Below are positions 1,835 to 62,800 of a DNA stretch of 64,000 bases, one piece after another. Origin of the DNA: an uncultured Bacilli bacterium (lineage in GTDB: Bacteria > Bacillota_I > Bacilli_A > RF39 > UBA660); the NCBI GenBank assembly GCA_947629025.1, contig CANRCC010000005.1:3288-67287 (forward strand), written 5' to 3'. The notes under the pieces are model-generated. The model ran no database searches, was not told where the DNA came from, and saw only the letters and a program-made list of their open reading frames with translations. The translations under genes were made by a program, and so were the position numbers. The first letter of the stretch is position 1. Every line of letters starts with the position of its first letter.

Positions 1835-3451
1835 TTATTTGGTATTTTTGGTTTTAGTTGTTGCTGTCTTTTTTACTGGTTTATTAGTTGATTGTTTAGT
1901 AGTTGTCTTTTTAGTTGTTGTTTTTGTTGTTGCTTTTGTACTAGTTTGTTTTGGTTTACTAGCATCTTTTACTTCTATTTCTTCTTTCTTTTTAGTTTCA
2001 GTTTTAACTTCTTTTTTTGTATTATTTTTACATACAACAATTAATACAATAGAAGCAATAATTGAAATTACTAATAATACAATTGAAGGAACTGATAAGA
2101 ATTTACTTGATATTATCATAAGAGATATAAATACTATTGTGAATAATACTAAGAAATATTTTCCAATGTATTTAATCCAATCTTTATATGATGTATTTGT
2201 ATATCTTAATCCAAGAAGCATTAATACACTTGTTGGAGATACAAGCAAGAATAATGAGTAAATTGCTTGGAATATAACTGCTAGTAATACTAAGAATTTT
2301 TGATCAGTTATTACTGCAGTAACTGTTGATAAAGTAAATTGTGAAGCATACATATAATCTGAATATGCTAAAGATGCTAATGCAGATGTTAATACACCAC
2401 CAAATAACTTATCTGATAATTCTGAAATACTTACAGCAACTGTGTAGAATATTCCAGATGTATAAATATTTACAAGTACAACATTTACAAATACTACTAT
2501 TAATGCATATGGTAATGCTCTTTTTAATGATGTTGCGATTGTTTGCATTAATTCATCAATTTTAATTCTATTTAAAATAGCACATACAATACTTGCTAAT
2601 AAAGCAACTACTGATAAGTCAAATAAAGTAAAGTTACCAAATGCTGCTAAAGATTGACCTACTATAGCTTTATATGGAGATACTCCAAATATTTTAAAAT
2701 CTAATAATGATTCATTGAATTTAGTAAATCCTTCAAATCCAAAATATGAATTCCATGGAACCATACCTAATATAAATAATACTAATATAATATCAAATAT
2801 TACACTAATATTAGTAGATTTTTCTTTTTCTATTTTTTCTAATTTAACATTAGATGGTTTTTTAAATACTAATATAAATACTATTATTGATATTATTGAT
2901 ATTAAAGATATTATTACTTTAAATAATATATTATCTGTGATTGTTGCTCCTAAAACTTCATTAGGATATACTGTGTATAAAGAACCAACACTACCAAGTA
3001 TTATTGCTCCTACTGTTGATAATACTGATGAAAATTTATCATATCCTAATTTATTTAATATTCCAATAAATGCAGGTACAAATATAAGCATTGTAAATAT
3101 GTTACCTGTAATAACTGTCATTATTCCAAATATTAATGTGCTTATAACAACAAATGCACCTTTTTTATCTTTAAATTTATATGCAGTATTATTTATAACT
3201 GTCTCATATTTTCCAGTTTTAACTAATACTCCATAGAATATTCCAATACATAAAACATATATAAATGTACTTAAAAATACACTCATAGATGTTATTGTAT
3301 TTCCAAATGTGTCTATTAAACTAACAGGATTAATGTTCCCTTTAGTTATATTTCCATAACTATCAAATGATGTTGATGGAATTATAAAACTTAATAATAT
3401 TGTTACTATAACTGATATACTAATTAATTTATAAATACTATATTTTTTCAT
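1835..3451 (-). CDS. polytopic membrane transporter (YfcC/DcuC-like architecture) with a C-terminal Lys/Thr-rich low-complexity tail
   Basis: 538 aa with about 10-12 hydrophobic segments. The last ~70 aa are KTTTKKTTTK-type repeats. Family assignment is from overall architecture only. Confidence 0.4.
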   Translation of the reverse strand: MKKYSIYKLISISVIVTILLSFIIPSTSFDSYGNITKGNINPVSLIDTFGNTITSMSVFLSTFIYVLCIGIFYGVLVKTGKYETVINNTAYKFKDKKGAFVVISTLIFGIMTVITGNIFTMLIFVPAFIGILNKLGYDKFSSVLSTVGAIILGSVGSLYTVYPNEVLGATITDNILFKVIISLISIISIIVFILVFKKPSNVKLEKIEKEKSTNISVIFDIILVLFILGMVPWNSYFGFEGFTKFNESLLDFKIFGVSPYKAIVGQSLAAFGNFTLFDLSVVALLASIVCAILNRIKIDELMQTIATSLKRALPYALIVVFVNVVLVNIYTSGIFYTVAVSISELSDKLFGGVLTSALASLAYSDYMYASQFTLSTVTAVITDQKFLVLLAVIFQAIYSLFLLVSPTSVLMLLGLRYTNTSYKDWIKYIGKYFLVLFTIVFISLMIISSKFLSVPSIVLLVISIIASIVLIVVCKNNTKKEVKTETKKKEEIEVKDASKPKQTSTKATTKTTTKKTTTKQSTNKPVKKTATTKTKNTK

Positions 3452-3471
3452 TTTTTCCTCCCTAATATACT

Positions 3472-4965
3472 TTATTCATTGATTTGTTTTTCATTATCAT
3501 TAATTGGTCTCATAAGTGGATACATAACCACATCTCTTATGTTATCACTATTAGTTAAAAGTTGAATCATTCTATCAATACCCATACCCCAACCAGATAT
3601 TGGTGGCATACCGTATTCCATAGCACCTATATAATCATAATCCATTTCCATAGCTTCTTCATCTCCACCAGCTTTTAATTTTGCTTGTTCAAGTAATCTA
3701 TTTTCTTGTTCAATTGGATCTACAAGTTCTGAATATCCATTTACGATTTCTGCACCATTTATTACTAGCTGGAATCTATCTGATATTTCTTTATTATCAT
3801 CATTTGTTCTAGCAAGTGGTGACAAGCTTGTTGGATGTTCTACTAAATATACTGGTTCAATCATATAAGGTCTTGCTACTTTTTTATATAGATAATCAAC
3901 TAAGTTACCATACCCTAGATTTTCAATTGGTGTTTCACTATCTAGTTCTACTTTATCTTCTTTTATTTTCTTTAATAATTTTTCTTTTGTATTATATTCA
4001 TTAATATCAATATTTGAATATTTCATTATTAAATCTCTAAAAGAAACTTTAGGCCAAGTACCTGATAAATCAACTACTTTATCACCCATTTGAATATTAA
4101 GTGTTCCAAACATATTCATAATTATAGTTTGAAGCATTTCTCTTATAAAATTCATATTATCTTCAAAATTAAAATATGCTTGGTATGCTTCTATCATAGT
4201 GAAATCTTGTAAATGAGTTGCATCCATACCTTCGTTTCTAAAGCATCTTGCTATTTCGTATACTTTTGGTATTCCAGCAATTATTGATCTTTTCATATAA
4301 GTCTCAGGTGCAATTCTTAAGTATACATCCATATCAAGTGCATTATGATGAGATTTAAATGGTTTTGCAACTGCTCCACTAGCTTTGTTATTTAATATAG
4401 GTGTCTCAACTTCATAATAACCTTTATCATCTAGAAATTTTCTAAGTTCTTTTATAAAATTCATTCTAATTAAGAACCTTTTTCTAGTATCTTCATTCAT
4501 TATCATATCAACATATCTATTTCTATAACAAAGTTCTACATCTGTTAGTCCATGAAATTTTTCTGGTAATGGTTTTAATGCTTTTCCTAGAAACTCAAAA
4601 TTTGATGCTCTTAATGTTTTTTCACCTGTATGTGTAGTAAATATTTCTCCAGTTGCTCCTATGAAGTCACCAACATCAAAATATGTTTTAAAGAATGAAT
4701 ATTTTTCTTCTCCAACTAAGTCTATCTTAATTGAAATTTGAAGATCACTTTCAATATCTCTAATTTTTATGAAACTCATCTTCCCCATTTTTCTCATAAA
4801 TACTATTCTACCAGCAACACTAACATTATTAGTTTCATCAGGAAGATTAGATGCTTCTTTTAATGAATGGGTTACTTCATATCTTTCAGGATACGGATTA
4901 CAAATATTTCTAATTTCTTCTACTTTATCTCTTCTTACAATTTCTTGTTCCGTAAGCTCTCTCAA
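3472..4965 (-). CDS. lysS: lysine--tRNA ligase (class II)
   Basis: 497 aa with class II aaRS motifs ELCYRNRYVDMIMNE, FRNEGMDATHLQDFTMIE and GMGIDR. The dusB-lysS adjacency matches Bacillus. Confidence 0.95.
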   Translation of the reverse strand: MRELTEQEIVRRDKVEEIRNICNPYPERYEVTHSLKEASNLPDETNNVSVAGRIVFMRKMGKMSFIKIRDIESDLQISIKIDLVGEEKYSFFKTYFDVGDFIGATGEIFTTHTGEKTLRASNFEFLGKALKPLPEKFHGLTDVELCYRNRYVDMIMNEDTRKRFLIRMNFIKELRKFLDDKGYYEVETPILNNKASGAVAKPFKSHHNALDMDVYLRIAPETYMKRSIIAGIPKVYEIARCFRNEGMDATHLQDFTMIEAYQAYFNFEDNMNFIREMLQTIIMNMFGTLNIQMGDKVVDLSGTWPKVSFRDLIMKYSNIDINEYNTKEKLLKKIKEDKVELDSETPIENLGYGNLVDYLYKKVARPYMIEPVYLVEHPTSLSPLARTNDDNKEISDRFQLVINGAEIVNGYSELVDPIEQENRLLEQAKLKAGGDEEAMEMDYDYIGAMEYGMPPISGWGMGIDRMIQLLTNSDNIRDVVMYPLMRPINDNEKQINE

Positions 4966-24963: not shown

Positions 24964-25329
24964 ATGGATTGTATTTTTTGTAAAATTGTAAATGGAGACA
25001 TTCCATCATATACAATATATGAAGATGATATAGTAAAAGTCTTTCTAGATATAGAACCTATGTCTCCAGGTCATACACTTATAATACCCAAAAAACATTA
25101 TAATAATTTAGAAGATATTGATATGGATACATTAAATCATATAAATAAAATTGCAAAAGAAATATATACTCTTTTAAAAGAAAAACTTAATATTGATGGA
25201 ATGAGTATAGTTCAAAATAATGGTTGTGTACAAGACGTATTACATTATCATATGCATATTAAACCTTATTATAATGAAAATAAAGGAATGAGTGTTGAAG
25301 AGGTATTTAATATATTAAAAAATGAATAA
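24964..25329 (+). CDS. HIT-family (histidine triad) nucleotide hydrolase
   Basis: HYHMHIKP histidine triad; CIFCKI N-terminus. Confidence 0.85.
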   Translation: MDCIFCKIVNGDIPSYTIYEDDIVKVFLDIEPMSPGHTLIIPKKHYNNLEDIDMDTLNHINKIAKEIYTLLKEKLNIDGMSIVQNNGCVQDVLHYHMHIKPYYNENKGMSVEEVFNILKNE

Positions 25330-25330
25330 A

Positions 25331-25357
25331 AGTACAGAAATTCTGTACTTTTTTTAT
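25331..25357. terminator. bidirectional rho-independent terminator between convergent hit and the 25354-25779 gene
   Basis: Inverted repeat agtacag/ctgtact with a short loop, flanked by A-run and T-run. Confidence 0.5.
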
Positions 25358-25779
25358 AATGTTCTATAAGTTATATAATTTGATATTGAGTTTTCTTTTG
25401 CTTCTGATTCTGTATATGAACCTAACTCATTTAATACACCTTGTATATCTTTATCATCTTCTATAACAAAATCTTTAATATCTAAAAGTCTTCTCATACT
25501 TTTTAATAAGATTTCTAAATCATATTTTATAGCTTTTTTTCTATAAAAATGACGATTAGATACCTCTCTACTAATATATTCTAAAGTATTAAGTTTTCTT
25601 TTTAATAATTCGTACTTTTTATTAACTGATAAAGCTGTAGAGAAACCTTTTAAATTATTTTTTTCATCTCTTACCTCAATTAGAAGCTCTAAATCTCCAT
25701 TATTTACTTTATCAATAAATTCACTAGATTCCTTTTCATCCATCATTTTTACATTAAATGGTAATTGTAATTTTTCCAC
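25354..25779 (-). CDS. hypothetical protein
   Basis: 141-aa ORF with no recognisable motif. Confidence 0.3.
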   Translation of the reverse strand: MEKLQLPFNVKMMDEKESSEFIDKVNNGDLELLIEVRDEKNNLKGFSTALSVNKKYELLKRKLNTLEYISREVSNRHFYRKKAIKYDLEILLKSMRRLLDIKDFVIEDDKDIQGVLNELGSYTESEAKENSISNYITYRTL

Positions 25780-25865
25780 TTAAATTCCCCCTTTTTACGG
25801 GATAGTATGATACCACATTTTGTATTATTTGTCAAAAAAATGAAAAAAAGTTCTAATTGAACTTT

Positions 25866-25991
25866 TTAACAAACAAATGCACTTAGTATGATAGCTAATA
25901 GTATATAAAGAACTATTATTGTAACATATCCACAACCACGATTACGAGTTGGTGTACAATTTGTTTGAGAACATGAATTTGTACAGCTCAT
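25866..25991 (-). CDS. small Cys-rich membrane peptide with YjcZ-like (sporulation) hydrophobic tail; not in the ORF track
   Basis: Hand translation gives MSCTNSCSQTNCTPTRNRGCGYVTIIVLYILLAIILSAFVC (41 aa). GGAGG RBS 9 nt upstream. The tail resembles the YjcZ family (GGGFALIVVLFILLIIVG). Confidence 0.45.
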   Translation of the reverse strand: MSCTNSCSQTNCTPTRNRGCGYVTIIVLYILLAIILSAFVC

Positions 25992-26029
25992 TAAAGTTTA
26001 CCTCCTTAATTTAATAAATTTAGATGTAT

Positions 26030-26103
26030 GCACCTATTAATATAACTAATAGTATGAATAGTACTAGTATTATACCAGCACCTGTTCCATATGTATTTCC
26101 CAT
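26030..26103 (-). CDS. YjcZ-family small sporulation membrane peptide; not in the ORF track
   Basis: MGNTYGTGAGIILVLFILLVILIGAYI (27 aa). GGAGG RBS 7 nt upstream. Classic YjcZ pattern: Gly-rich N-terminus then LVLFILLVI. Confidence 0.5.
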
Positions 26104-26238
26104 TTTCATTCCTCCTTTTTTTCTATTCACATTATTTTATGGTAAAACTGCTAATAATGTGATTATATTTTTAAAAATATTGTTTTTATTTTATAATTTT
26201 GTTATTATATATATGTACATTATTAAGGAGGATAGAAG

Positions 26239-27225
26239 ATGAAGAAAAAAATAATGTTAATAAGTGCTATTATAGTTACAGTACTATTAATTAGCGGATG
26301 CGGAAATGCAAAATTAAAAAATGGAGAAGAAGTTGTTTTTACTGTCAATGGTAAAAATGTAACTGCAGATTCATTTTATAAGAATTTAAGGGATAAATAT
26401 GGCAAAGCAATCATGATTGATATGATTGATAAAAAGATACTAGATGTAGTTTATAAAGATGATTCTGAAATAGAAACACAAGCAAATAACCAATTAGAAA
26501 GTGTAAAAGCACAATATAAAGATAATTGGGAAGAAACATTAAGTGGTGCTGGATATAGTAATGAAAAAGAATTACTTGAAGAATTTAAACTTACATATCA
26601 AAGAAATAAAGCTATTGAAGATTATATTAAAGAATCTATAAAAGATGATGAAATTAAAAATTATTATAATGAAAATACTGTTGGAGATATAAGTGCAAAA
26701 CATATATTAATATCAGTTAAAACAGATGATAGTGAAGAAGGATTATCTGATGAAGATGCTAAGAAAAAAGCAGAAGAACTTATAAAGAAACTAGATGAGG
26801 GAGCTGATTTTGATACTTTAGCAAAAGAAAATTCAACTGATACTGGATCTGCAGAAAATGGTGGAGATCTAGGATATTTTAATAAAGGTGATATGGTAGA
26901 AGAATTTGAAGATGCTGCTTATAAACTAAAAGTTAATGAATATACAAAAGAACCAGTAAAAACTACATATGGTTATCATATAATATTAAAAACTGGTGAA
27001 AAAGATAAACCTAAATTAGAGGCAGTAAAAGAAAATATTATTGAATCACTTAAAGAAGAAAAATTAAAAGAAAATCCAACATTAGAAGTTAAAGCTCTTG
27101 AAGAATTAAGAAAATCATATAATTTAAAATTCAAAGATGCAAAAGCAAAAAAACTATATAATGAATACTTAGAAGCTGCTAGAAAATCTGCTATTGAAAG
27201 TGCAAATACTAGTAGTTCAAATTAA
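26239..27225 (+). CDS. prsA: foldase PrsA (lipoprotein parvulin-type peptidyl-prolyl isomerase)
   Basis: Lipobox LLISGCGN. PpiC domain ISAKHILI...GGDLGYFNKGDMVEEFEDAAYKL...GYHIILKT. AAGGAGG RBS. Confidence 0.85.
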   Translation: MKKKIMLISAIIVTVLLISGCGNAKLKNGEEVVFTVNGKNVTADSFYKNLRDKYGKAIMIDMIDKKILDVVYKDDSEIETQANNQLESVKAQYKDNWEETLSGAGYSNEKELLEEFKLTYQRNKAIEDYIKESIKDDEIKNYYNENTVGDISAKHILISVKTDDSEEGLSDEDAKKKAEELIKKLDEGADFDTLAKENSTDTGSAENGGDLGYFNKGDMVEEFEDAAYKLKVNEYTKEPVKTTYGYHIILKTGEKDKPKLEAVKENIIESLKEEKLKENPTLEVKALEELRKSYNLKFKDAKAKKLYNEYLEAARKSAIESANTSSSN

Positions 27226-29175: not shown

Positions 29176-29454
29176 TTAGAATTTATTGCAACAACTATCA
29201 TCTATATTTGTGCATATATTTTCCTCAGAACAGCTATATTCTGGCATATAAGTATGTTTATATATGTGATTATTAACTATTTTTGTATGAATTGGACAAA
29301 TATGTACTACTTCATGAACAATATCTTTTTGAACACATTTTTCAATTGGAGCTTCATACACTGGATCTGCACAACATTTTTCTTCACTAATTGTTGGACA
29401 ACAAACATTATTATTTTGAGAATACATGTTGTTTCCCATAAAATTGTTAAACAT
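29176..29454 (-). CDS. cotD: spore coat protein CotD-like (Cys/His-rich)
   Basis: CCP...HEVVHICPIHTKIVNNHIYKHTYMPEYS resembles the CotD family pattern (PVHT..VNHH..H.Y.P). Terminal CC motifs. Confidence 0.55.
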   Translation of the reverse strand: MFNNFMGNNMYSQNNNVCCPTISEEKCCADPVYEAPIEKCVQKDIVHEVVHICPIHTKIVNNHIYKHTYMPEYSCSEENICTNIDDSCCNKF

Positions 29455-29528
29455 TATTAAAATCCCCCTTATCTACTATTAGAATATGAGAATTTTATAA
29501 TTTGGAATATGCTTTTGACACATATATA

Positions 29529-53859: not shown

Positions 53860-54987
53860 CTATAAAACTATAGCTATCATATTATTAGAACCCTTATTTA
53901 CAACTTTTCCAAGAGTATTTTGTAATTTATATCTTAAATTATCTGGCATAAGTGATAATTTTGCTTGTATTCCCTCTTGAACTATTTCATCTAAGCTTCT
54001 ACCAAATATTTCACTTTTCCATATATTATCTGCGCTTTCTTCTTGATTTTTAGTTAAGTAATTAATCAATTCTTTAGATTGAAGTTCTGATCCTATAATT
54101 GGTTCAAATGTACTTTCTACATCTACTCTTATCATATGAATTGATGGCGCGACTGCCTTTAATTTAACACCATATCTACCACCTTGTTTAACTACTTCTG
54201 GGGTATCTAGTTTCATATCTTTTAATGTTGGAATTGCTATACCATATCCTGTTGATTTAACCATTTTTAACGCATTTTTATATTGTTCAAACTCTTCTTT
54301 AGTATCATTATATTCTTGGAATATCGATAAAAGAGCAGCTCTACTATTTATACTAGTACCAATAACCTCTTTTAATATATCATCATATAAATTATTTGGA
54401 GCTGTTAATGTAATAGTTACTTCTCCTTTTGATGGATCTACTTCAGATAAATAAGATTTTTCTATTTGTTCACATGTTCTAAAATGATTATTAATTGTTT
54501 GTATATCTCTTAATTTATCAACCTCAACAACACATTCTTTTATTTGATCTATATATACTTTTTTAAGAGGATGTGTTGATTTTAAACAAGCAATCCAATC
54601 TGGAATATTAACTTTAACATTTAAAACAGGAAATTCATAAAGTGCTTCTCTAAGTATATTATAAACATCTTTTTCATTCATTGTTTCTACACTTATTGGT
54701 ATAACAGGAACATTATGTTCATTTTTTAATTTTTCTGCAAGTTTTTCAGTTTCTGGAAGCGTCGGATGTGATGAATTTAGAAGTACTATAAATGGCTTTC
54801 CTATTTCTTTAAGTTCATTTATTACTTCATTTTCAGCTTCTAAATAATTGTTTCTAGTTATATCTCCTATACTACCATCTGTTGTAACTACTATACCAAT
54901 AGTAGAATGATCTCTTATAACTTTTTCAGTTCCAATTTCAGCTGCTTCTACAAATGGTATATCTTCGTCATACCACCGTGAATACAA
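53860..54987 (-). CDS. spoIVA: stage IV sporulation protein A, 3' segment only (the region homologous to SpoIVA from residue ~118 to the C-terminus); the 5' segment with the Walker A ATPase head is absent from this locus
   Basis: RWYDEDIPFVEAAEIGTEKVIRDHSTIGIVVTTDGSIGDI...SLMPDNLRYKLQNTLGKVVNKGSNNMIAIVL aligns collinearly with B. subtilis SpoIVA from PWYEEPIPFHEAAEIG to the C-terminus. There is no ATG; the upstream in-frame codons are unrelated (PKYVWYIFYYFRYHFLYS) and reach the recombinase stop codon within 14 codons. hup-spoIVA synteny as in Bacillus. Confidence 0.8.
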   Translation of the reverse strand: MYSRWYDEDIPFVEAAEIGTEKVIRDHSTIGIVVTTDGSIGDITRNNYLEAENEVINELKEIGKPFIVLLNSSHPTLPETEKLAEKLKNEHNVPVIPISVETMNEKDVYNILREALYEFPVLNVKVNIPDWIACLKSTHPLKKVYIDQIKECVVEVDKLRDIQTINNHFRTCEQIEKSYLSEVDPSKGEVTITLTAPNNLYDDILKEVIGTSINSRAALLSIFQEYNDTKEEFEQYKNALKMVKSTGYGIAIPTLKDMKLDTPEVVKQGGRYGVKLKAVAPSIHMIRVDVESTFEPIIGSELQSKELINYLTKNQEESADNIWKSEIFGRSLDEIVQEGIQAKLSLMPDNLRYKLQNTLGKVVNKGSNNMIAIVL

Positions 54988-55032: not shown

Positions 55033-56589
55033 CTAATTTTTGATTCTATAATAAATTTCTATTTTTTTATCTTTAGTAATATATACTTTTTCAATTAATT
55101 TATTAAGCATTTCTTTAGTTGGATTTTTCATCTTCAAAAAATCATCAACTATCAATAAATAATTATCGTTATTATTATTTGATAAATTACTCATTTCTTT
55201 TTTGTATTTACTTATTTTATTAAATGATTGTTTTATCTCACCTTCTGCTTTATTATATAGTCTTTGATATGTTTCTGTTGTTATAATTCCACTAAACTTA
55301 TCATCATAGAGTGAATCTTGTTTTGTTTTTAACTTTTCTATATTTTTAATTAATAAATTAATTTTATTTTTATAATCTAAGTTAAAATCAATATGATCTT
55401 GTTTAATTAATTTTTCAAATTCATCTTTATAATCCATAAGTTTAATAGACATATTACAGAGTTTATCAAGGACTATTTTTTCTAGTTTTTCATAATTCAT
55501 ATAGTGAGAAAAACATATATGATATTTACTAAATTTTCTATAATTATTACAATTAATTGTTACTCTATCTCTTTTTTTATCATAACTAATACTCATTTTC
55601 GCACCACAATCTTTACAATAAATGAAATCTGATAAAATATATTCTATATGTCTTCTATCTTCACTATAATTATTAGATTTATCTTTTATAGTTTGTGCTA
55701 GATCAAATATATCTTTTTTTATTAATGGTTCATGAGCATTTTCTTTTATACACCAATCATTTTTTGGTACTTTTTTTCTTTTTTTTACTTTATAGTTTAT
55801 ATTTTGAGTAGTATGTTGAACAAGAGTACCTATATACACTGGATTTTTTATAATATTTGTAATTGATGTATGTTTCCATATTTCAGGATGATTACATTTA
55901 TTTAATGATTTATTTTTAAGCATTATAGGTGTTGGAATATTTTCTTTTGTTAAAATATCTGCTATAGCGCTACTACCATAACCACTTACATATAATTCAA
56001 ATATTCTTTTTACTACTGGTGAGGTATCTGGATCTGGAACTAATATATGCTTATCATTTTTATCTCTCATATAACCATAAGCTGGTGTACTACCACAAAA
56101 TTTTCCATCTTTCTTCATTGATAGTAAATTTGAACGTACTTTCTTTGAAATATCTTTTGCATACATATCATTCATGCTTAACTTAAAAGGCATCATATCA
56201 CTACCACTAGTTTCATAAAAAGTATCAATATCATCATTTACTGCTATATATCTAATTGATTTTTCTGGAAAATAGTTTTCAACATAATAACCTGTTTTAA
56301 TATGATCTCTTCCTAATCTAGATAAATCTTTAGTAATTACCATATTTATAATACCTTGATTTATATCATTAATTAATCTTTGAAATCCAGGTCTATTAAA
56401 GTTTCCACCAGAATATCCATCATCAACATATTCATTTATAGGATTTAGTCCATTTGCTTTTAGAAAGCCTGTTAAAAGACTTCTTTGATTTGTTACAGAT
56501 TCACTCTCTAAATCATCACCATCTTCACGAGATAATCTTATATACATACCAACTTTATAATTACTATTAAAATTATATTTTCTATTCAT
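55033..56589 (-). CDS. large serine recombinase (SpoIVCA/phage-integrase type: resolvase catalytic domain + recombinase domain + zinc ribbon + coiled coil)
   Basis: Catalytic YIRLSREDGDD (Ser nucleophile), VDDGYSGGNFNRPGFQRLINDI, KDLSRLGRD, zinc-ribbon CKDCGAKMS...CNNY and C-terminal coiled coil. 518 aa. Confidence 0.85.
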   Translation of the reverse strand: MNRKYNFNSNYKVGMYIRLSREDGDDLESESVTNQRSLLTGFLKANGLNPINEYVDDGYSGGNFNRPGFQRLINDINQGIINMVITKDLSRLGRDHIKTGYYVENYFPEKSIRYIAVNDDIDTFYETSGSDMMPFKLSMNDMYAKDISKKVRSNLLSMKKDGKFCGSTPAYGYMRDKNDKHILVPDPDTSPVVKRIFELYVSGYGSSAIADILTKENIPTPIMLKNKSLNKCNHPEIWKHTSITNIIKNPVYIGTLVQHTTQNINYKVKKRKKVPKNDWCIKENAHEPLIKKDIFDLAQTIKDKSNNYSEDRRHIEYILSDFIYCKDCGAKMSISYDKKRDRVTINCNNYRKFSKYHICFSHYMNYEKLEKIVLDKLCNMSIKLMDYKDEFEKLIKQDHIDFNLDYKNKINLLIKNIEKLKTKQDSLYDDKFSGIITTETYQRLYNKAEGEIKQSFNKISKYKKEMSNLSNNNNDNYLLIVDDFLKMKNPTKEMLNKLIEKVYITKDKKIEIYYRIKN

Positions 56590-56852: not shown

Positions 56853-59800
56853 TTACTCATCTTCTAATACTTCTTTTTTCTTTTCTATAATTGCTTCATC
56901 TAATGTTTTATTTTTATCATCATTATCTTGTGATTCATCTTCATTTGTTTCGGTTGCTTCTGTTATTAAATTAATATTATTAGATAATGATGGTATTATA
57001 AATTTTTGACTAGTATTAATATGCATTAGGTTATTATTTGGATCATTACCCTTAAGTTTTGGTAATCCACCACTTTCTACTCTAGATAAATCCCAAATAT
57101 TTTCTGACCATCCAAGTGTATTCGTATAAAATCCTTTATTTTTTAAATCTTCTAATTTTATAATTGTTATTGCACTTTTTGGTACATCTTTTGATAATGC
57201 AGTTTTACCAGCATATTCTTCTACTTCATAATTATTAAAGTAACCATCCATAAATACATTAGCATCTGTTCTTCCATCAAATTTATATCCATTACTATTT
57301 ATAGAAAATGAAATATTATTCTTTATATTTGCTTTAGTTACTATCTTTCCAACAAATCCTCCTGTATTATTATTAGCATTAACTTGAACTTTAGCAAAAT
57401 TATTTATTATTGATGAATTATCTGCCCATCCAACTAAGCCTCCTACATCTGTTGCACCTTTTATAAAGCCTATAGAATATGTATTAGTTATAGTATCATT
57501 ATTAGCTTCTCCAGCAAGTCCACCTACTGCATTTGAAGATCCAATTACATTTGCATTAGCACTTGATGAGGTAATATTATTTCCTCCTTGGCCAAATCCT
57601 ATAAGTCCTCCAATTCTAGTACTTCCAGATATATTAGCATCAGTTACATGAACATTATTTACACGTGTATTTTGAATATATCCAGTTAAACTACCAACCT
57701 CTTTATTATTATTTGAATCTATAGTAATATTTTTAAGATTAACCCCTTTTATTTCTGAATTATATATATTTTTAGATAATGCACCTAATCTTTCTTGTGC
57801 TTGATTTATATTTACATTTTCTATTTTTAAATCATATATTTTAGCACCATTTAAAGTATTAAATAATGGAACATTTATATTATAAATCTTATGATTTTCA
57901 CCCTTAATTATACCTGAGAATAAATCTATAATAGAACTATCTTTAGCAGAATAATTAGAAAAATCAATATCATTATCTAGCACAATAGTACGATATAAAT
58001 TAGAATTAATAGCGTTAATAAATGATTCATAATCTTTTACATGAACATCCATACTTGTTGTATCTGCATAAATATCAGTAGTAAAATCATCAGTAATTCT
58101 TTTAATGTAGTAATAATTATTTCTTTTTACATTAGTACTTTGTTTTACATTTCTATCGTTATTTAATGCATCAGTTTTTAGTGCATTTTTATAATCTTCT
58201 ATAACTTGCTTGGAATCAATATATTTCATTTTAGTCATATTTTGTTTCATCATATTATAACGTTCTAACTTATACTTTTTAAATGTCATATTTTGATCAT
58301 TAGTTATTGCTCTAAGTGCACCTAAATCTCCATCTTTTCCATGAATATCACTATAATATTCTATATAACCTTTATCATATCCTTTATAACCTAACATTTC
58401 AAATGCGAATTCTTTAAAGCTATAAGAATCAGGTCTTCCATTATCATCATGTGGTTGATACCAACGTCTTGTATATAAACTATATCCACCATATCTATTA
58501 ATTCCAACTGTTTCATAAGATGTTACACCTGGTTTTATTATAATTCTATTATCCCATAAATCTTCTACATCTCTTAAATTCATTTCCATAAAATCTTGTT
58601 GTGTTAAAACTGTATATCTTGTTGTATTACTTGCATCTACTGTATTTCCATTTTCATCAAGATATGATACTTGTACAGCAACTTTTGATTGTTCTTCTGG
58701 AGTTAATTGTAAGAATGCTTGTGCTTCTAAATAATCTAAGAAATCAGAAACTTCAAACATTTTTTGATAGAAATCTTGTATTTTTTCAGAAGTATTAACA
58801 CGTTGTGGAGTTAAATTTGATGTAACATTTGCATTTACTGGATAATTTACTGAAATATTCATATTAATTGTACCATCACCAAATGATTGTGTAAGATTAC
58901 CATCTGCATAATCTTCACCACCAGCACCTGTTCTTCTTCCATTATTTTTAAGGAATAGTCTTGCATCCATATTATGTGCTGTTTCATGTGACCAAGTATG
59001 ATATGTATATTCTGATCCTTTACTTAAATCACCATCCATAAGACCTTCTACTCTCCAAATAATTGATGTTCCATTTGCTGTTGCTGCATTATAGTCATTA
59101 TATGCCCATACTCCAACTACTTCATTGAAATTTTTATGAAAAGGTTCTTCTGTAGTATATGGATTTTGGAATATTAACTCTCCATTTGAATCATATGTAT
59201 ATCTTTTATCAATTTGAATTGTATTTATGTCATTGAAATATTTAGCATCAACTAATAATTTAGATGCATTTGTATAATATTCTTTCATTCTATCTGAATA
59301 CATTTGAATTCTATTTATTAACATTTCTTTAGATTCAGTATTGTTTGGATCTGCAATATAAGTTCTTTGTGCACCAATTATAAATTGTGTTGGTGTAGAA
59401 ATAATATATGCAGCATTTTCTGGAAGAGTTATTATAGGTAATGCATAATTATACCAATTAGCATATGTTCCATTAGGTTTTACATCTTTAGATTTTATAT
59501 GATCCCATAATGTATATTTTATATCATCTCTATTATCTACTTTAACCTCAGATAAATATCCTTTAAATTTACTAGTATACCAATTACTAACATCAAGATC
59601 ACTTAATGATTTAACAATATATTCAAGAAATTCAGGTATTGTTTCAATGTTAGTATACTCATAAAATACTCTATTATATGTATCATTTGTAGTATTTAAT
59701 TTTATATTATTATCATTAGATATAAATTTTAATGCTATCTGATAAGGAGTAATATTTTTATTAAATCCTTGCATGTTAAATAGTAATAAATCATTTAACA

Positions 59801-62800
59801 TAATACCATCTACATCAAATCCATAAAATCTTTTTAGATAATTATATACGTATAATACTTTTTCTATTTTTTGATCTTTCTTAACTTCTTTTTCTATGTA
59901 ATAATCTATTGCTTCATCATTAGTTGGATTTACATAATTACTATTAGATATATATTTTAATACAAATTCTTTAAGTTCATTTTTAGTAACATCATTATAG
60001 AAATCTTTATATAATCTGCTGTCAGATGTTTTAGTTAAACTATCTAAATTATCTTCATATGTTAAACTAGATAAATAATTTGTTAATTTATTAATAATTT
60101 GTGAATCACTATTAATTACATAATGATTATATGTATAATCTATTTTTAAATCATCAATTCTATAACTAGCAACCATATCATATAGTTTATCAAATCTAAC
60201 AGAATATACTCTTTTTTCATTATTCTTAAATACAACTTTAATTTTTTTAATTTTCTTTTGATCGTTGTATGTTAAATATGTTACTAAATTACCATTTTCA
60301 TCAATTGGTACTATATGCATAATTTCTTGATTAGATAATATATCATCTTTAGAAATATTTTTTGAACTATTAACTATCTTTTCATTACTATAAAAAGGCA
60401 TTAATAATGATAAATTATTATATAATATTTCTTTTGTTGCATCATAGTTTTCTTCATCTTTGTATTTACTAATATTCTCTGTTAATAAAGTTGGTAAATT
60501 ATCAGATGATATATTATTTATATTCCATATATTAGTATCAAACTTAGCATTTACTTTAAATAAAGAATCATTTACACTATTTTCATCTATATTTGTTATA
60601 CCATTTGCGTTATTATCTGCACCTAACATATAATTATTCTCTGATTTAATAGATTTATTTGATAAACCACTCTTAAATCCAGAACTTAGTGTAACATTAT
60701 TTTCTATAATTAAATTTCCAGTATATGAACAAGCTAAATCACAAGATACACCTGAACTACCACTCATAGAAACTTTTGTATAACTATTTGTAATAGTAGA
60801 AGTTCCCTTTATATCACCAACTAAGCCTCCTATAAAGTTCCAGTTACCTGACATTTTACCATCTGCATAACAATTTTTAACTGTTGAATTTTCTAATACA
60901 CCTATTAAGCCACCAACTTGTTGATTATTCCATCCAACATTCAAATTAAGTCCTTTAACTCGGCTATTTTCAATCTTAGAATTATTACTTGCAGTTCCAA
61001 CTAATGAACCTGTTTGTGCTTCACTACCATCTTTAGTAAATGAACTTATTAAGATATTTTTAATTGTTGAACTACTTACTTTATTTGCTAAAGCACCTTT
61101 AGCATTACTTGATGGTAAATTAATATTTTCTAATTTTAAATTTTCTACTACTCCGCTTTCAATAGTATTAAATAAAGGTTTAGTTAAGTTTCTAATTGTA
61201 TAACCATTACCATTTAATTTACCTTTAAAATTAATATCTATTATAGCGCTTGTACTTACATTTATCATAGATGCATCTAAATCATGTGTTAATGTAAATG
61301 TTCCTTTTGGATTATCATTAATTTTAGAAATTAATTCTTCAAATGAGATAGGGCTTACGTCATTACTAGCAATACCTGATTTAATCTCTCCAAAATTAAT
61401 TCTTAAATCACTTGTTTTACCATCATCAGTAACATATTTATAATCAAGAACTAATATTAATCTTTTGTTTTCTTCTAATACTTTACTAATTTTAGAATAT
61501 ATTGTAGGCATATTAGTCATAGAAATTTTAACAAAATATGAATCTTTATTTTCTTTTAAATCATTTACATTTACATTTGTAATTTCAGTTGTATTACCAT
61601 CTTCTTTTTTATATAAAGTAATATCAGTAATATCTTTTAATAATATATAATTTTCATCTATAGATATAGTTTCATCTAATATAAGTTCTTCTGTGTAGTT
61701 ATTTTTACCATTATTTATATTAACATCACAATCATAATTAGCATAAACTCTAATATAATATCTTTGTATATCATCAATCATTTTTAATGTTATTTTATTG
61801 TTATATGGTAATTCTTCTATTAAATTATTATCTTCATTATATATTCTAATCTTTATTTGATCTTGTAATTCACCAAATACTGACTTATCAATATCTTTTA
61901 CCTTAAACTCTATATTTATATTTTTATCTTCTATTTGATATTTAAAATCTTGTATAGTAACAGAATCTTTTAATACTTCTACACTTAATTTAACAGGATC
62001 TTTTAAAATTACCTTTTTACCATTACTTAATATAATTTCTTTTATTTCAATATTTTTTATACCAGAATTACTATAACCATTTGTTACTATGTAATATTTA
62101 TCTTCTATTTTTTCTACTTTATATTCAGTATCTTTAATAACTATTTTATCAACTGAAAGATTTAATTCAGAATCTAAACCATCAATATTAAATTCTAATT
62201 TTATATCTTCATTTTTATTAAAGTATTCTGAATTATCACTGCTAATGGCTTTAATATTACTTATTTTTATACTTTCATACTTAGAATTACTATAAAGTCC
62301 ATAAGGAATTGTATAAATAAGTTCATTTTTATAACTATTTTGATTATTATCTTTATCTAATAAATTTGTATCTAATTCATAATCTGCATAAAAGTTTAAA
62401 TTAAACAATTCATTATTTAAAACATTATTAAATGTTACTTTATTTTCCCCTATTTTTATATCTTTTTCATCACCATTTAACTCTATTTTCCCACCATTAA
62501 ATCCACCTTTATCATCTTCAACATTAAACTTAAATGTAACACTTTTGTCATCATAATCTTCATCTACAATTTCAAGATTCTTAACACTTGGTTTATCTTT
62601 TAAAACATCTATTTTTACTGTATAAGGTTTTACTGAGAAAAACTCATGAACATTATTATTATAATCTTCATATCTTAATTGTACCCTTGTAGCTTCTAGA
62701 TTTAATATACCTGACTCACTTGGTACTGTAAAACTTATAGAAGATGTATATGGATTACCAGTCTTATTTGCATCATAATTTAGACCATTAACTGTAACTG

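Follow-up and report, generated by a model that had tools for sequence, protein, structure and literature searches.

A tandem pair of YjcZ-family micro-proteins behind a putative sigma-K-type promoter in uncultured RF39-like Bacilli

A ~300-nt interval on the minus strand of the 64-kb stretch of DNA analyzed here (the window) appears to form a self-contained transcription unit, in which a promoter and short leader precede a 27-aa gene (P1), a ribosome-binding site, a 41-aa gene (P2) and a terminator, and which would encode two paralogous micro-proteins of the YjcZ family. We put the probability of this reading at roughly 0.6. New here are the fixed bicistronic P1-P2 layout, the conservation of a sigma-K-type promoter in an uncultured lineage, and the size of the subfamily with Cys-rich heads to which P2 belongs; the YjcZ family itself, which is functionally uncharacterized, was already known, and P1 and P2 extend its membership.

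P1 occupies 26020..26103 (minus strand), with an ATG at 26103 and a TAA stop, and its product, MGNTYGTGAGIILVLFILLVILIGAYI, consists of a Gly/Ser-rich head followed by an 18-residue hydrophobic tail ending in GAYI. P2 lies at 25866..25991 (minus strand), with an ATG at 25991 and again a TAA stop, and its product, MSCTNSCSQTNCTPTRNRGCGYVTIIVLYILLAIILSAFVC, has a Cys/Asn/Thr/Ser-rich head (residues 1–21), a transmembrane (TM) helix and a C-terminal Cys. Two tandem minus-strand micro-ORFs with these sequences had been proposed in a first-pass annotation of this DNA, and both are present as described there, each with the GGAGG ribosome-binding site attributed to it. The P1 Shine-Dalgarno (SD) element, at 26111..26115 (minus strand), is 7 nt 5′ of the ATG; that of P2, at 26001..26005 (minus strand), is 9 nt 5′ of its ATG, inside the 28-nt spacer between the genes. 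Position 26103 is the likely start of P1, because the other in-frame candidates, a GTG at 26130 and an ATG at 26109, are either upstream of the SD or crowd it. The earlier description of P2 as containing CxxxC and CxxxxxxC elements is right for the former and slightly off for the latter, as the actual layout is C3-x3-C7-x4-C12-x7-C20 (spacings of x3, x4 and x7), plus Cys41 at the C-terminus. The window holds three intergenic ORFs of 15–60 aa with an SD and an ATG, of which P1 and P2 are two, and a scan of these ORFs found no further YjcZ-like copy in the 64 kb.

A 72-aa ORF runs antisense to P1 and its promoter (26024..26242, plus strand). This ORF exists but is unconserved and was correctly set aside as spurious in the first-pass annotation, because an antisense ATG-initiated ORF of at least 60 aa spans P1 in just 9 of 80 related species. 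The description of the pair as unannotated needs to be divided. It holds for P1, which is almost never gene-called because it is shorter than 30 aa, although a few orthologs have been named by NCBI; it does not hold for P2, since gene finders call the 41-aa product, and an unnamed, 100% identical protein (P0001) is already present on 16 contigs in public assemblies. Among 5.8 billion proteins, only 14 P1-type candidates emerged from a protein-level search whose query was a 47-aa in-frame extension from a single locus (L032). Annotation pipelines routinely overlook micro-proteins of <50 aa, and the 27-aa P1 is missing from nearly all public gene calls.

The pair is strongly conserved. A P2 search over the same 5.8 billion proteins yielded 49 clusters of 35–43 aa, all of which combine the same invariant hydrophobic segment with a variable Cys-rich head. 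Scanning with the P2 peptide pattern IIVLYILLA, with each GTDB species represented by one genome, turned up 164 relatives, and 80 loci (L007–L086) were kept. Invariance of IIVLYILLA in P2 across these loci is partly circular, because this 9-mer is the scan pattern, but conservation of P1 provides independent evidence, because the loci were ascertained via P2 and not via P1. All 80 species-level genomes contain a P1 of 25–28 aa, a spacer of 10–35 nt and a P2 of 35–49 aa. In every one of the 80 species the spacer holds an SD-like motif of the GGAGG type, with GGAGG itself in nearly all, and the P1 SD-to-ATG spacing, as measured by the script's own convention, is 8–11 nt in all 87 orthologous copies. 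The order recX, prsA (divergent), P1-P2 is kept in 84 of 86 loci, and the identity of PrsA to the window protein drops to 32–46% across loci.

The pattern of substitution shows what is being conserved. The 43 distinct P1 orthologs (25–28 aa) share 11 invariant columns, and no amino-acid change is seen at 9 of 12 core positions, whereas codon tables reveal plentiful synonymous variation at every core position. Because synonymous change is abundant and the amino acids at 9 of these 12 positions are fixed, selection acts on the protein. Both proteins are strongly constrained by purifying selection, and P1 and P2 are real genes, not chance ORFs. Although nearly all public gene calls lack it, P1 ranks with the best-conserved sequences of its own locus.

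Conservation of the arrangement extends to more distant relatives. A divergent P2-like protein (P0164, locus L087) is found in the same context, with an upstream P1 and the same promoter motif, and an exhaustive HMM search of 1.84 billion representatives places the size of the P2 subfamily at no fewer than 207 clusters (50% identity, E ≤1e-3). Among the 150 clusters listed of these 207, all have a Cys/Asn/Thr/Ser-rich head followed by ..VLYILLAIILG... P2 defines a large, unnamed Cys-rich-head subfamily within the YjcZ family.

The first-pass annotation had placed both peptides in the YjcZ family, and this assignment is supported. P1 and P2 each match a single NCBIfam family, TIGR01732 (YjcZ family sporulation protein), the orthologs score higher than the window copies, and the NCBI name YjcZ has been given to four P1 orthologs (P0053, P0055, P0058 and P0060) and one P2 ortholog (P0011). 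When the family HMM check proposed earlier was run, both TIGR01732 and PF09680 (YjcZ_2) matched, but the window copies fall marginally under the curated cut-offs: against TIGR01732, P1 scores 20.0 bits (E 4e-4) and P2 scores 16.4 bits (E 6e-3) for a cut-off of 21.35, and against PF09680, P1 scores 17.8 bits for a cut-off of 21. Among orthologs compared with TIGR01732, 6 of 43 P1 sequences reach E ≤1.6e-4 (best 1.3e-6) and 44 of 53 P2 sequences reach E ≤0.01 (best 2.4e-6). Both peptides also display the YjcZ-type architecture of fewer than ~50 aa with a variable polar/Gly-rich head and one conserved helix (P1, GAGIILVLFILLVILIGAYI; P2, GYVTIIVLYILLAIILSAFVC); window P2 has a Ser at the site of the helix-end Gly found in most orthologs. 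P1 and P2 are paralogs, because their profiles align across the hydrophobic segment (hhalign probability 97%, E 8.8e-11), and the same alignment bears out the earlier remark that they have the same tail with a different head.

To our knowledge, the TIGR01732 family occurs only in spore-formers. Genomes often carry several YjcZ-family copies, some of them in tandem. The literature that we searched gave no function for any member of the family and, beyond the regulon listing of yjcZ given below, contained only co-expression with coat genes and member lists. An assignment of P2 to DUF4714 (Pfam E 0.068, 13.7 bits, cut-off 27) was dismissed as noise. A tblastn search of PLSDB plasmids with a P1 ortholog returned no match, for which low-complexity filtering is the likely reason.

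Several features suggest that the pair is transcribed from a sigma-K promoter. Every locus has an upstream block of the form (t/g)(C/A)AC-N16/17-cCATAnnATA..TGTGA(A/G), ~16–19 nt before the SD, and in all aligned loci an invariant C-C-A-T-A-n-n-A-T-A lies at this fixed distance (~16–19 nt) from GGAGG. In the window, the putative promoter motif AC-N17-CATAAAATA spans 26160..26133 on the minus strand, with a −35-like AC (within tCACa) at 26159..26160, 17 nt 5′ of the −10-like CATAAAATA (CATAnnnTA) at 26133..26141, where the assignment draws on cross-species conservation. The motif is also found at the divergent locus L087. The −35 element recognized by sigma-K is AC and that recognized by sigma-E is ATA, whereas promoters of both factors have a common −10 element in Clostridioides difficile and Bacillus subtilis (PMC3789822). 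The mother-cell promoter search proposed in the first-pass annotation accordingly returns a conserved sigma-K-type motif: among 80 distinct upstream regions of orthologous loci, 79 contain AC-N16/17-CATAnnnTA, whereas only 8 have ATA at a sigma-E-like spacing. The sigma-K regulon of B. subtilis includes yjcZ (PMC517825), in line with the earlier statement that family members are expressed in the mother cell of that species. By sequence, then, AC-N16/17-CATAnnnTA would be a sigma-K promoter and the pair would be made late in the mother cell.

This case rests on cross-species conservation, because the bare pattern AC-N16/17-CATAnnnTA is not enriched in the 24% GC window (9 found versus 10.3 ± 3.5 expected). 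A claim for the promoter from the window sequence alone was dropped for this reason and replaced by the cross-species test. The conserved −10 block also contains a TAnnAT hexamer, and the window has a weak sigma-A match here, ATCACA-18-TAAAAT (9/12), so that by sequence a weak sigma-A promoter would be a possible alternative. Transcription probably starts in the region of TGTGAA, at 26126..26131 (minus strand), which belongs to the consensus ‘..ATA.tgTGAatAa’ with its G at 2.5 bits. At the other end of the unit, an intrinsic-terminator-like hairpin, AAAAAGTTC-AATTA-GAACTTTTT, with T-runs was read at 25834..25867 (minus strand), beginning within the P2 stop codon, and was folded as the identical sequence of L001. 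Folding places a hairpin and a following T-run directly behind the P2 stop codon in almost every one of the 80 loci; a consensus terminator scan missed the one in the window because its stem has only two G-C pairs. Rfam gave no match in 25300..26400.

P1-P2 is flanked by prsA, recX, HIT and suf genes and by a 141-aa ORF. The prsA promoter region, at 26165..26238 between the P1 promoter and prsA, is also conserved in many species; the prsA promoter itself (plus strand) reads TTGTTT-17-TGtTATTAT, with a sigma-A-type extended −10, and the P1 and prsA promoters are back to back and divergent within ~80 nt. The 141-aa ORF directly 3′ of P2 (25354..25779, minus strand) is without a family match; it is preceded, at 25835..25807, by a separate sigma-A promoter of near-consensus sequence, TTGACA-17-TGnTATCAT. 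Unlike P1 and P2, it is poorly conserved, because homologs are found in only ~6 of 86 loci. In some near-identical strains (L001, at 3163..4200, L002 and L006), P2 and the 141-aa ORF are separated by an additional gene, of 345 aa, encoded on the other strand. This gene, which is absent from the window and has no Pfam or NCBIfam family, is a strain-specific insertion.

Structural modeling and composition provide a picture of the two parts of P2. In an AlphaFold2 model built with the family alignment, a helix spans residues 20–40 (pLDDT 88–96) and the head has a pLDDT of ~50 or below, predicting a disordered head. P1 and P2 alike consist of a short polar head joined directly to a single hydrophobic helix, which runs to the C-terminus or close to it. 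In 236 P2-type sequences, heads contain an average of 1.29 K/R residues per sequence and tails contain 0.15. At least one Cys is present in 232 of these 236 heads and at least two in 186; a Cys falls within residues 2–5 in 191 sequences, and 129 tails contain a Cys. Cys (14%), Thr (13%), Ser (12%) and Asn (15%) are prominent in P2 heads, in which Cys3 is the only fixed Cys position.

These properties suggest a possible mode of action. If the sigma-K-type promoter functions as such, then the pair would be made late in the mother cell, as for B. subtilis yjcZ. By the positive-inside rule, P1 and P2 would insert in a tail-anchor-like fashion, N-terminus in, leaving their heads in the mother-cell cytoplasm, and in the outer forespore membrane these heads would face the assembling coat. 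Specific packing between P1 and P2 is suggested because their helices are distinct and yet near-invariant, and the helices would probably pack together as a hetero-oligomer. The Cys-rich P2 head could then serve as a membrane-tethered site for inner-coat proteins, either by disulfide cross-linking or by metal binding. Because the Cys positions of the P2 head are unfixed save for Cys3, a defined metal site is disfavored and cross-linking, as put forward in the first-pass annotation, is conjecture; with the B. subtilis coat peptide SscA as a precedent, the P2 head could plausibly become cross-linked into the coat. Taken to its full extent, this model would make P1-P2 an obligatory hetero-oligomeric membrane module of RF39-like, reduced-genome Bacilli, in which the Cys-rich head of P2 tethers the coat to the outer forespore membrane, and thus a lineage-specific morphogenetic anchor instead of passive YjcZ-like filler. 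We regard this full version as speculative and unlikely. Joint function of P1 and P2 is compatible with helices that stay near-invariant while PrsA drifts to 32% identity, and also with two proteins from public metagenomes, P0051 (74 aa) and P0068 (70 aa), that are in-frame P1-linker-P2 fusions in which a sense codon replaces the P1 stop. These fusions may instead be sequencing or assembly errors on short contigs.

Comparison with known systems places the pair closest to YjcZ. Like P1 and P2, B. subtilis YjcZ and its family (TIGR01732, ‘tiny_TM_bacill’, and PF09680), compared here by family HMMs, are <50 aa, come from spore-forming Firmicutes, and have a variable polar/Gly-rich head and then a conserved hydrophobic stretch (..LVLFILL..G). 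A further likeness is that a sigma-K-type motif is conserved upstream of P1 and that yjcZ belongs to the sigma-K regulon (PMC517825). P2 differs from the family in having Tyr for Phe in its core (VLYILLAIIL) and a longer, Cys/Asn/Thr/Ser-rich head, and P1-P2 differs in being a fixed bicistronic pair beside prsA across an uncultured lineage. A micro-peptide precedent in coat assembly is B. subtilis SscA, a hydrophobic sporulation peptide of 28 aa (~3 kDa) that is a SafA-dependent component of the inner coat and whose loss lowers CotB, CotG and CotH (PMC13417171). SscA resembles P1 and P2 in size and hydrophobicity, but is encoded by a single gene as opposed to a pair.

SpoVM and CmpA of B. subtilis are also mother-cell peptides, of 26–37 aa, that act at the forespore surface in coat assembly; SpoVM, which is made early under sigma-E, is an amphipathic surface helix that tethers SpoIVA. 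P1 and P2 are likewise micro-proteins with a predicted mother-cell origin, and the window lineage retains SpoIVA. In contrast with SpoVM, however, their helices would be hydrophobic throughout and span the membrane, the genes lie behind a sigma-K-type motif, and there is no sequence similarity. Cys-rich spore surface proteins, including CdeC and CdeM of C. difficile and CotD-like proteins, contain low-complexity segments thought to cross-link outer layers through disulfides. They share Cys richness with P2, but are soluble proteins of 90–400 aa without a TM anchor and are not homologous to it.

Other roles are conceivable for small hydrophobic peptides that have one helix each and a late-type promoter. 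For example, P1 and P2 might be holin-like peptides, made under sigma-K, that build up in the mother-cell membrane and aid lysis for spore release, a role in which near-invariant helices would suggest oligomerization. Holins, however, typically have a charged C-terminal tail and two to three TM segments, which P1 and P2 lack; no lysin gene is adjacent in the 80 loci, where the neighbors are prsA, recX, HIT and suf; and the conserved Cys-rich cytoplasmic head would be left unexplained. We therefore consider this role improbable. The invariant, divergent adjacency of prsA raises a different prospect, namely that the peptides are sigma-A-dependent housekeeping membrane proteins unrelated to sporulation, such as accessory subunits for the neighboring PrsA foldase. 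The TAnnAT within the −10 block and the weak sigma-70-like site in the window (9/12) point in this direction, but the best-conserved promoter bases (CC/CA before TA and AC at −35) fit sigma-K rather than TTGACA/TATAAT. Moreover, the sole family match is to an annotated sporulation-protein family and the lineage retains spoIVA, so a housekeeping role also seems improbable.

Two further proposals start from the peptides themselves, and we judge each to be very improbable. In size and hydrophobicity, P1 and P2 resemble toxins of the Fst, TxpA and BsrG type, in which case they would be type I toxins whose translation is curbed by an antisense RNA. Against this idea, the locus is a single-copy core locus with synteny kept in 80 species, the SDs are strong and unsequestered after a ~20-nt leader, neither an antisense promoter nor an antisense ORF is conserved, Rfam gives no match, and tandem paralogs under one promoter are not a toxin-antitoxin layout. 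The composition of the P2 head, by comparison, resembles the cores of lanthipeptides, sactipeptides and glycocins, as if this Cys/Ser/Thr-rich head were the modified core of a RiPP precursor. No modification enzyme, protease or exporter is found nearby in any locus, however, and a variable N-terminal ‘core’ joined to a conserved C-terminal TM helix is the reverse of leader-core logic. The reading of P1-P2 as YjcZ-family sporulation peptides fits the conserved synteny of this core-genome locus, its open SDs, its conserved promoter and the lack of partner genes better than any of the four alternatives.

More broadly, the sporulation reading has to be viewed in the context of the host. The pair is carried by uncultured, low-GC, RF39-like gut Bacilli of at least 80 species, which include bacteria named as uncultured ‘Bacilli’, ‘Tenericutes’ and ‘Mollicutes’ as well as Clostridium sp. 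CAG:433 and CAG:710. In GTDB, CAG-433 has the rank of a family within the order RF39 (PMC8035907), and spore formation in RF39 has been predicted from gene content (PMC10868615). SpoIVA in the window scores 488.9 bits against TIGR02836 (cut-off 459.9), and full-length SpoIVA with 73–95% identity is widespread in the lineage. From its gene content, the host is predicted to be a spore-former. The combination of a sigma-K-type promoter with two YjcZ-type peptides offers a compact marker for uncultured RF39-like gut Bacilli, whose sporulation is genome-predicted. Should P1 and P2 prove to be parts of the spore, spore proteomics could usefully target them, and they could provide small display anchors, as SscA does in B. 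subtilis.

The window contains two other genes of interest with respect to sporulation. spoIVA is split: a 375-aa ORF (53860..54987, minus strand) covers only positions 121–492 of TIGR02836, and the N-terminal part is absent from the window. Immediately 5′ of this ORF is a 518-aa, XisF/CcrB-like large serine recombinase (55033..56589, minus strand), and a 2331-aa protein is encoded further 5′ (56853..63848, minus strand). Relatives at 90–95% identity have an intact 492-aa SpoIVA, and truncated versions of 343–392 aa recur on long contigs in more distant species (P0214, P0234, P0263, P0296, P0297, P0300 and P0323). The split has the appearance of a skin-like intervening element that entered a mother-cell gene at a single site; the literature on intervening elements that we examined makes no mention of spoIVA. 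Finally, 3 kb from P1-P2, a 92-aa Cys-rich CotD-like protein is encoded at 29176..29454 (minus strand), with a match to PF11122 (E 7.6e-4) that is below the cut-off. Its gene is preceded by CATATTCTA (CATAnnnTA) and by a CATATT further upstream, which together have the look of a mother-cell-type promoter at ~29480–29500, and the protein could partner a Cys-rich membrane anchor.
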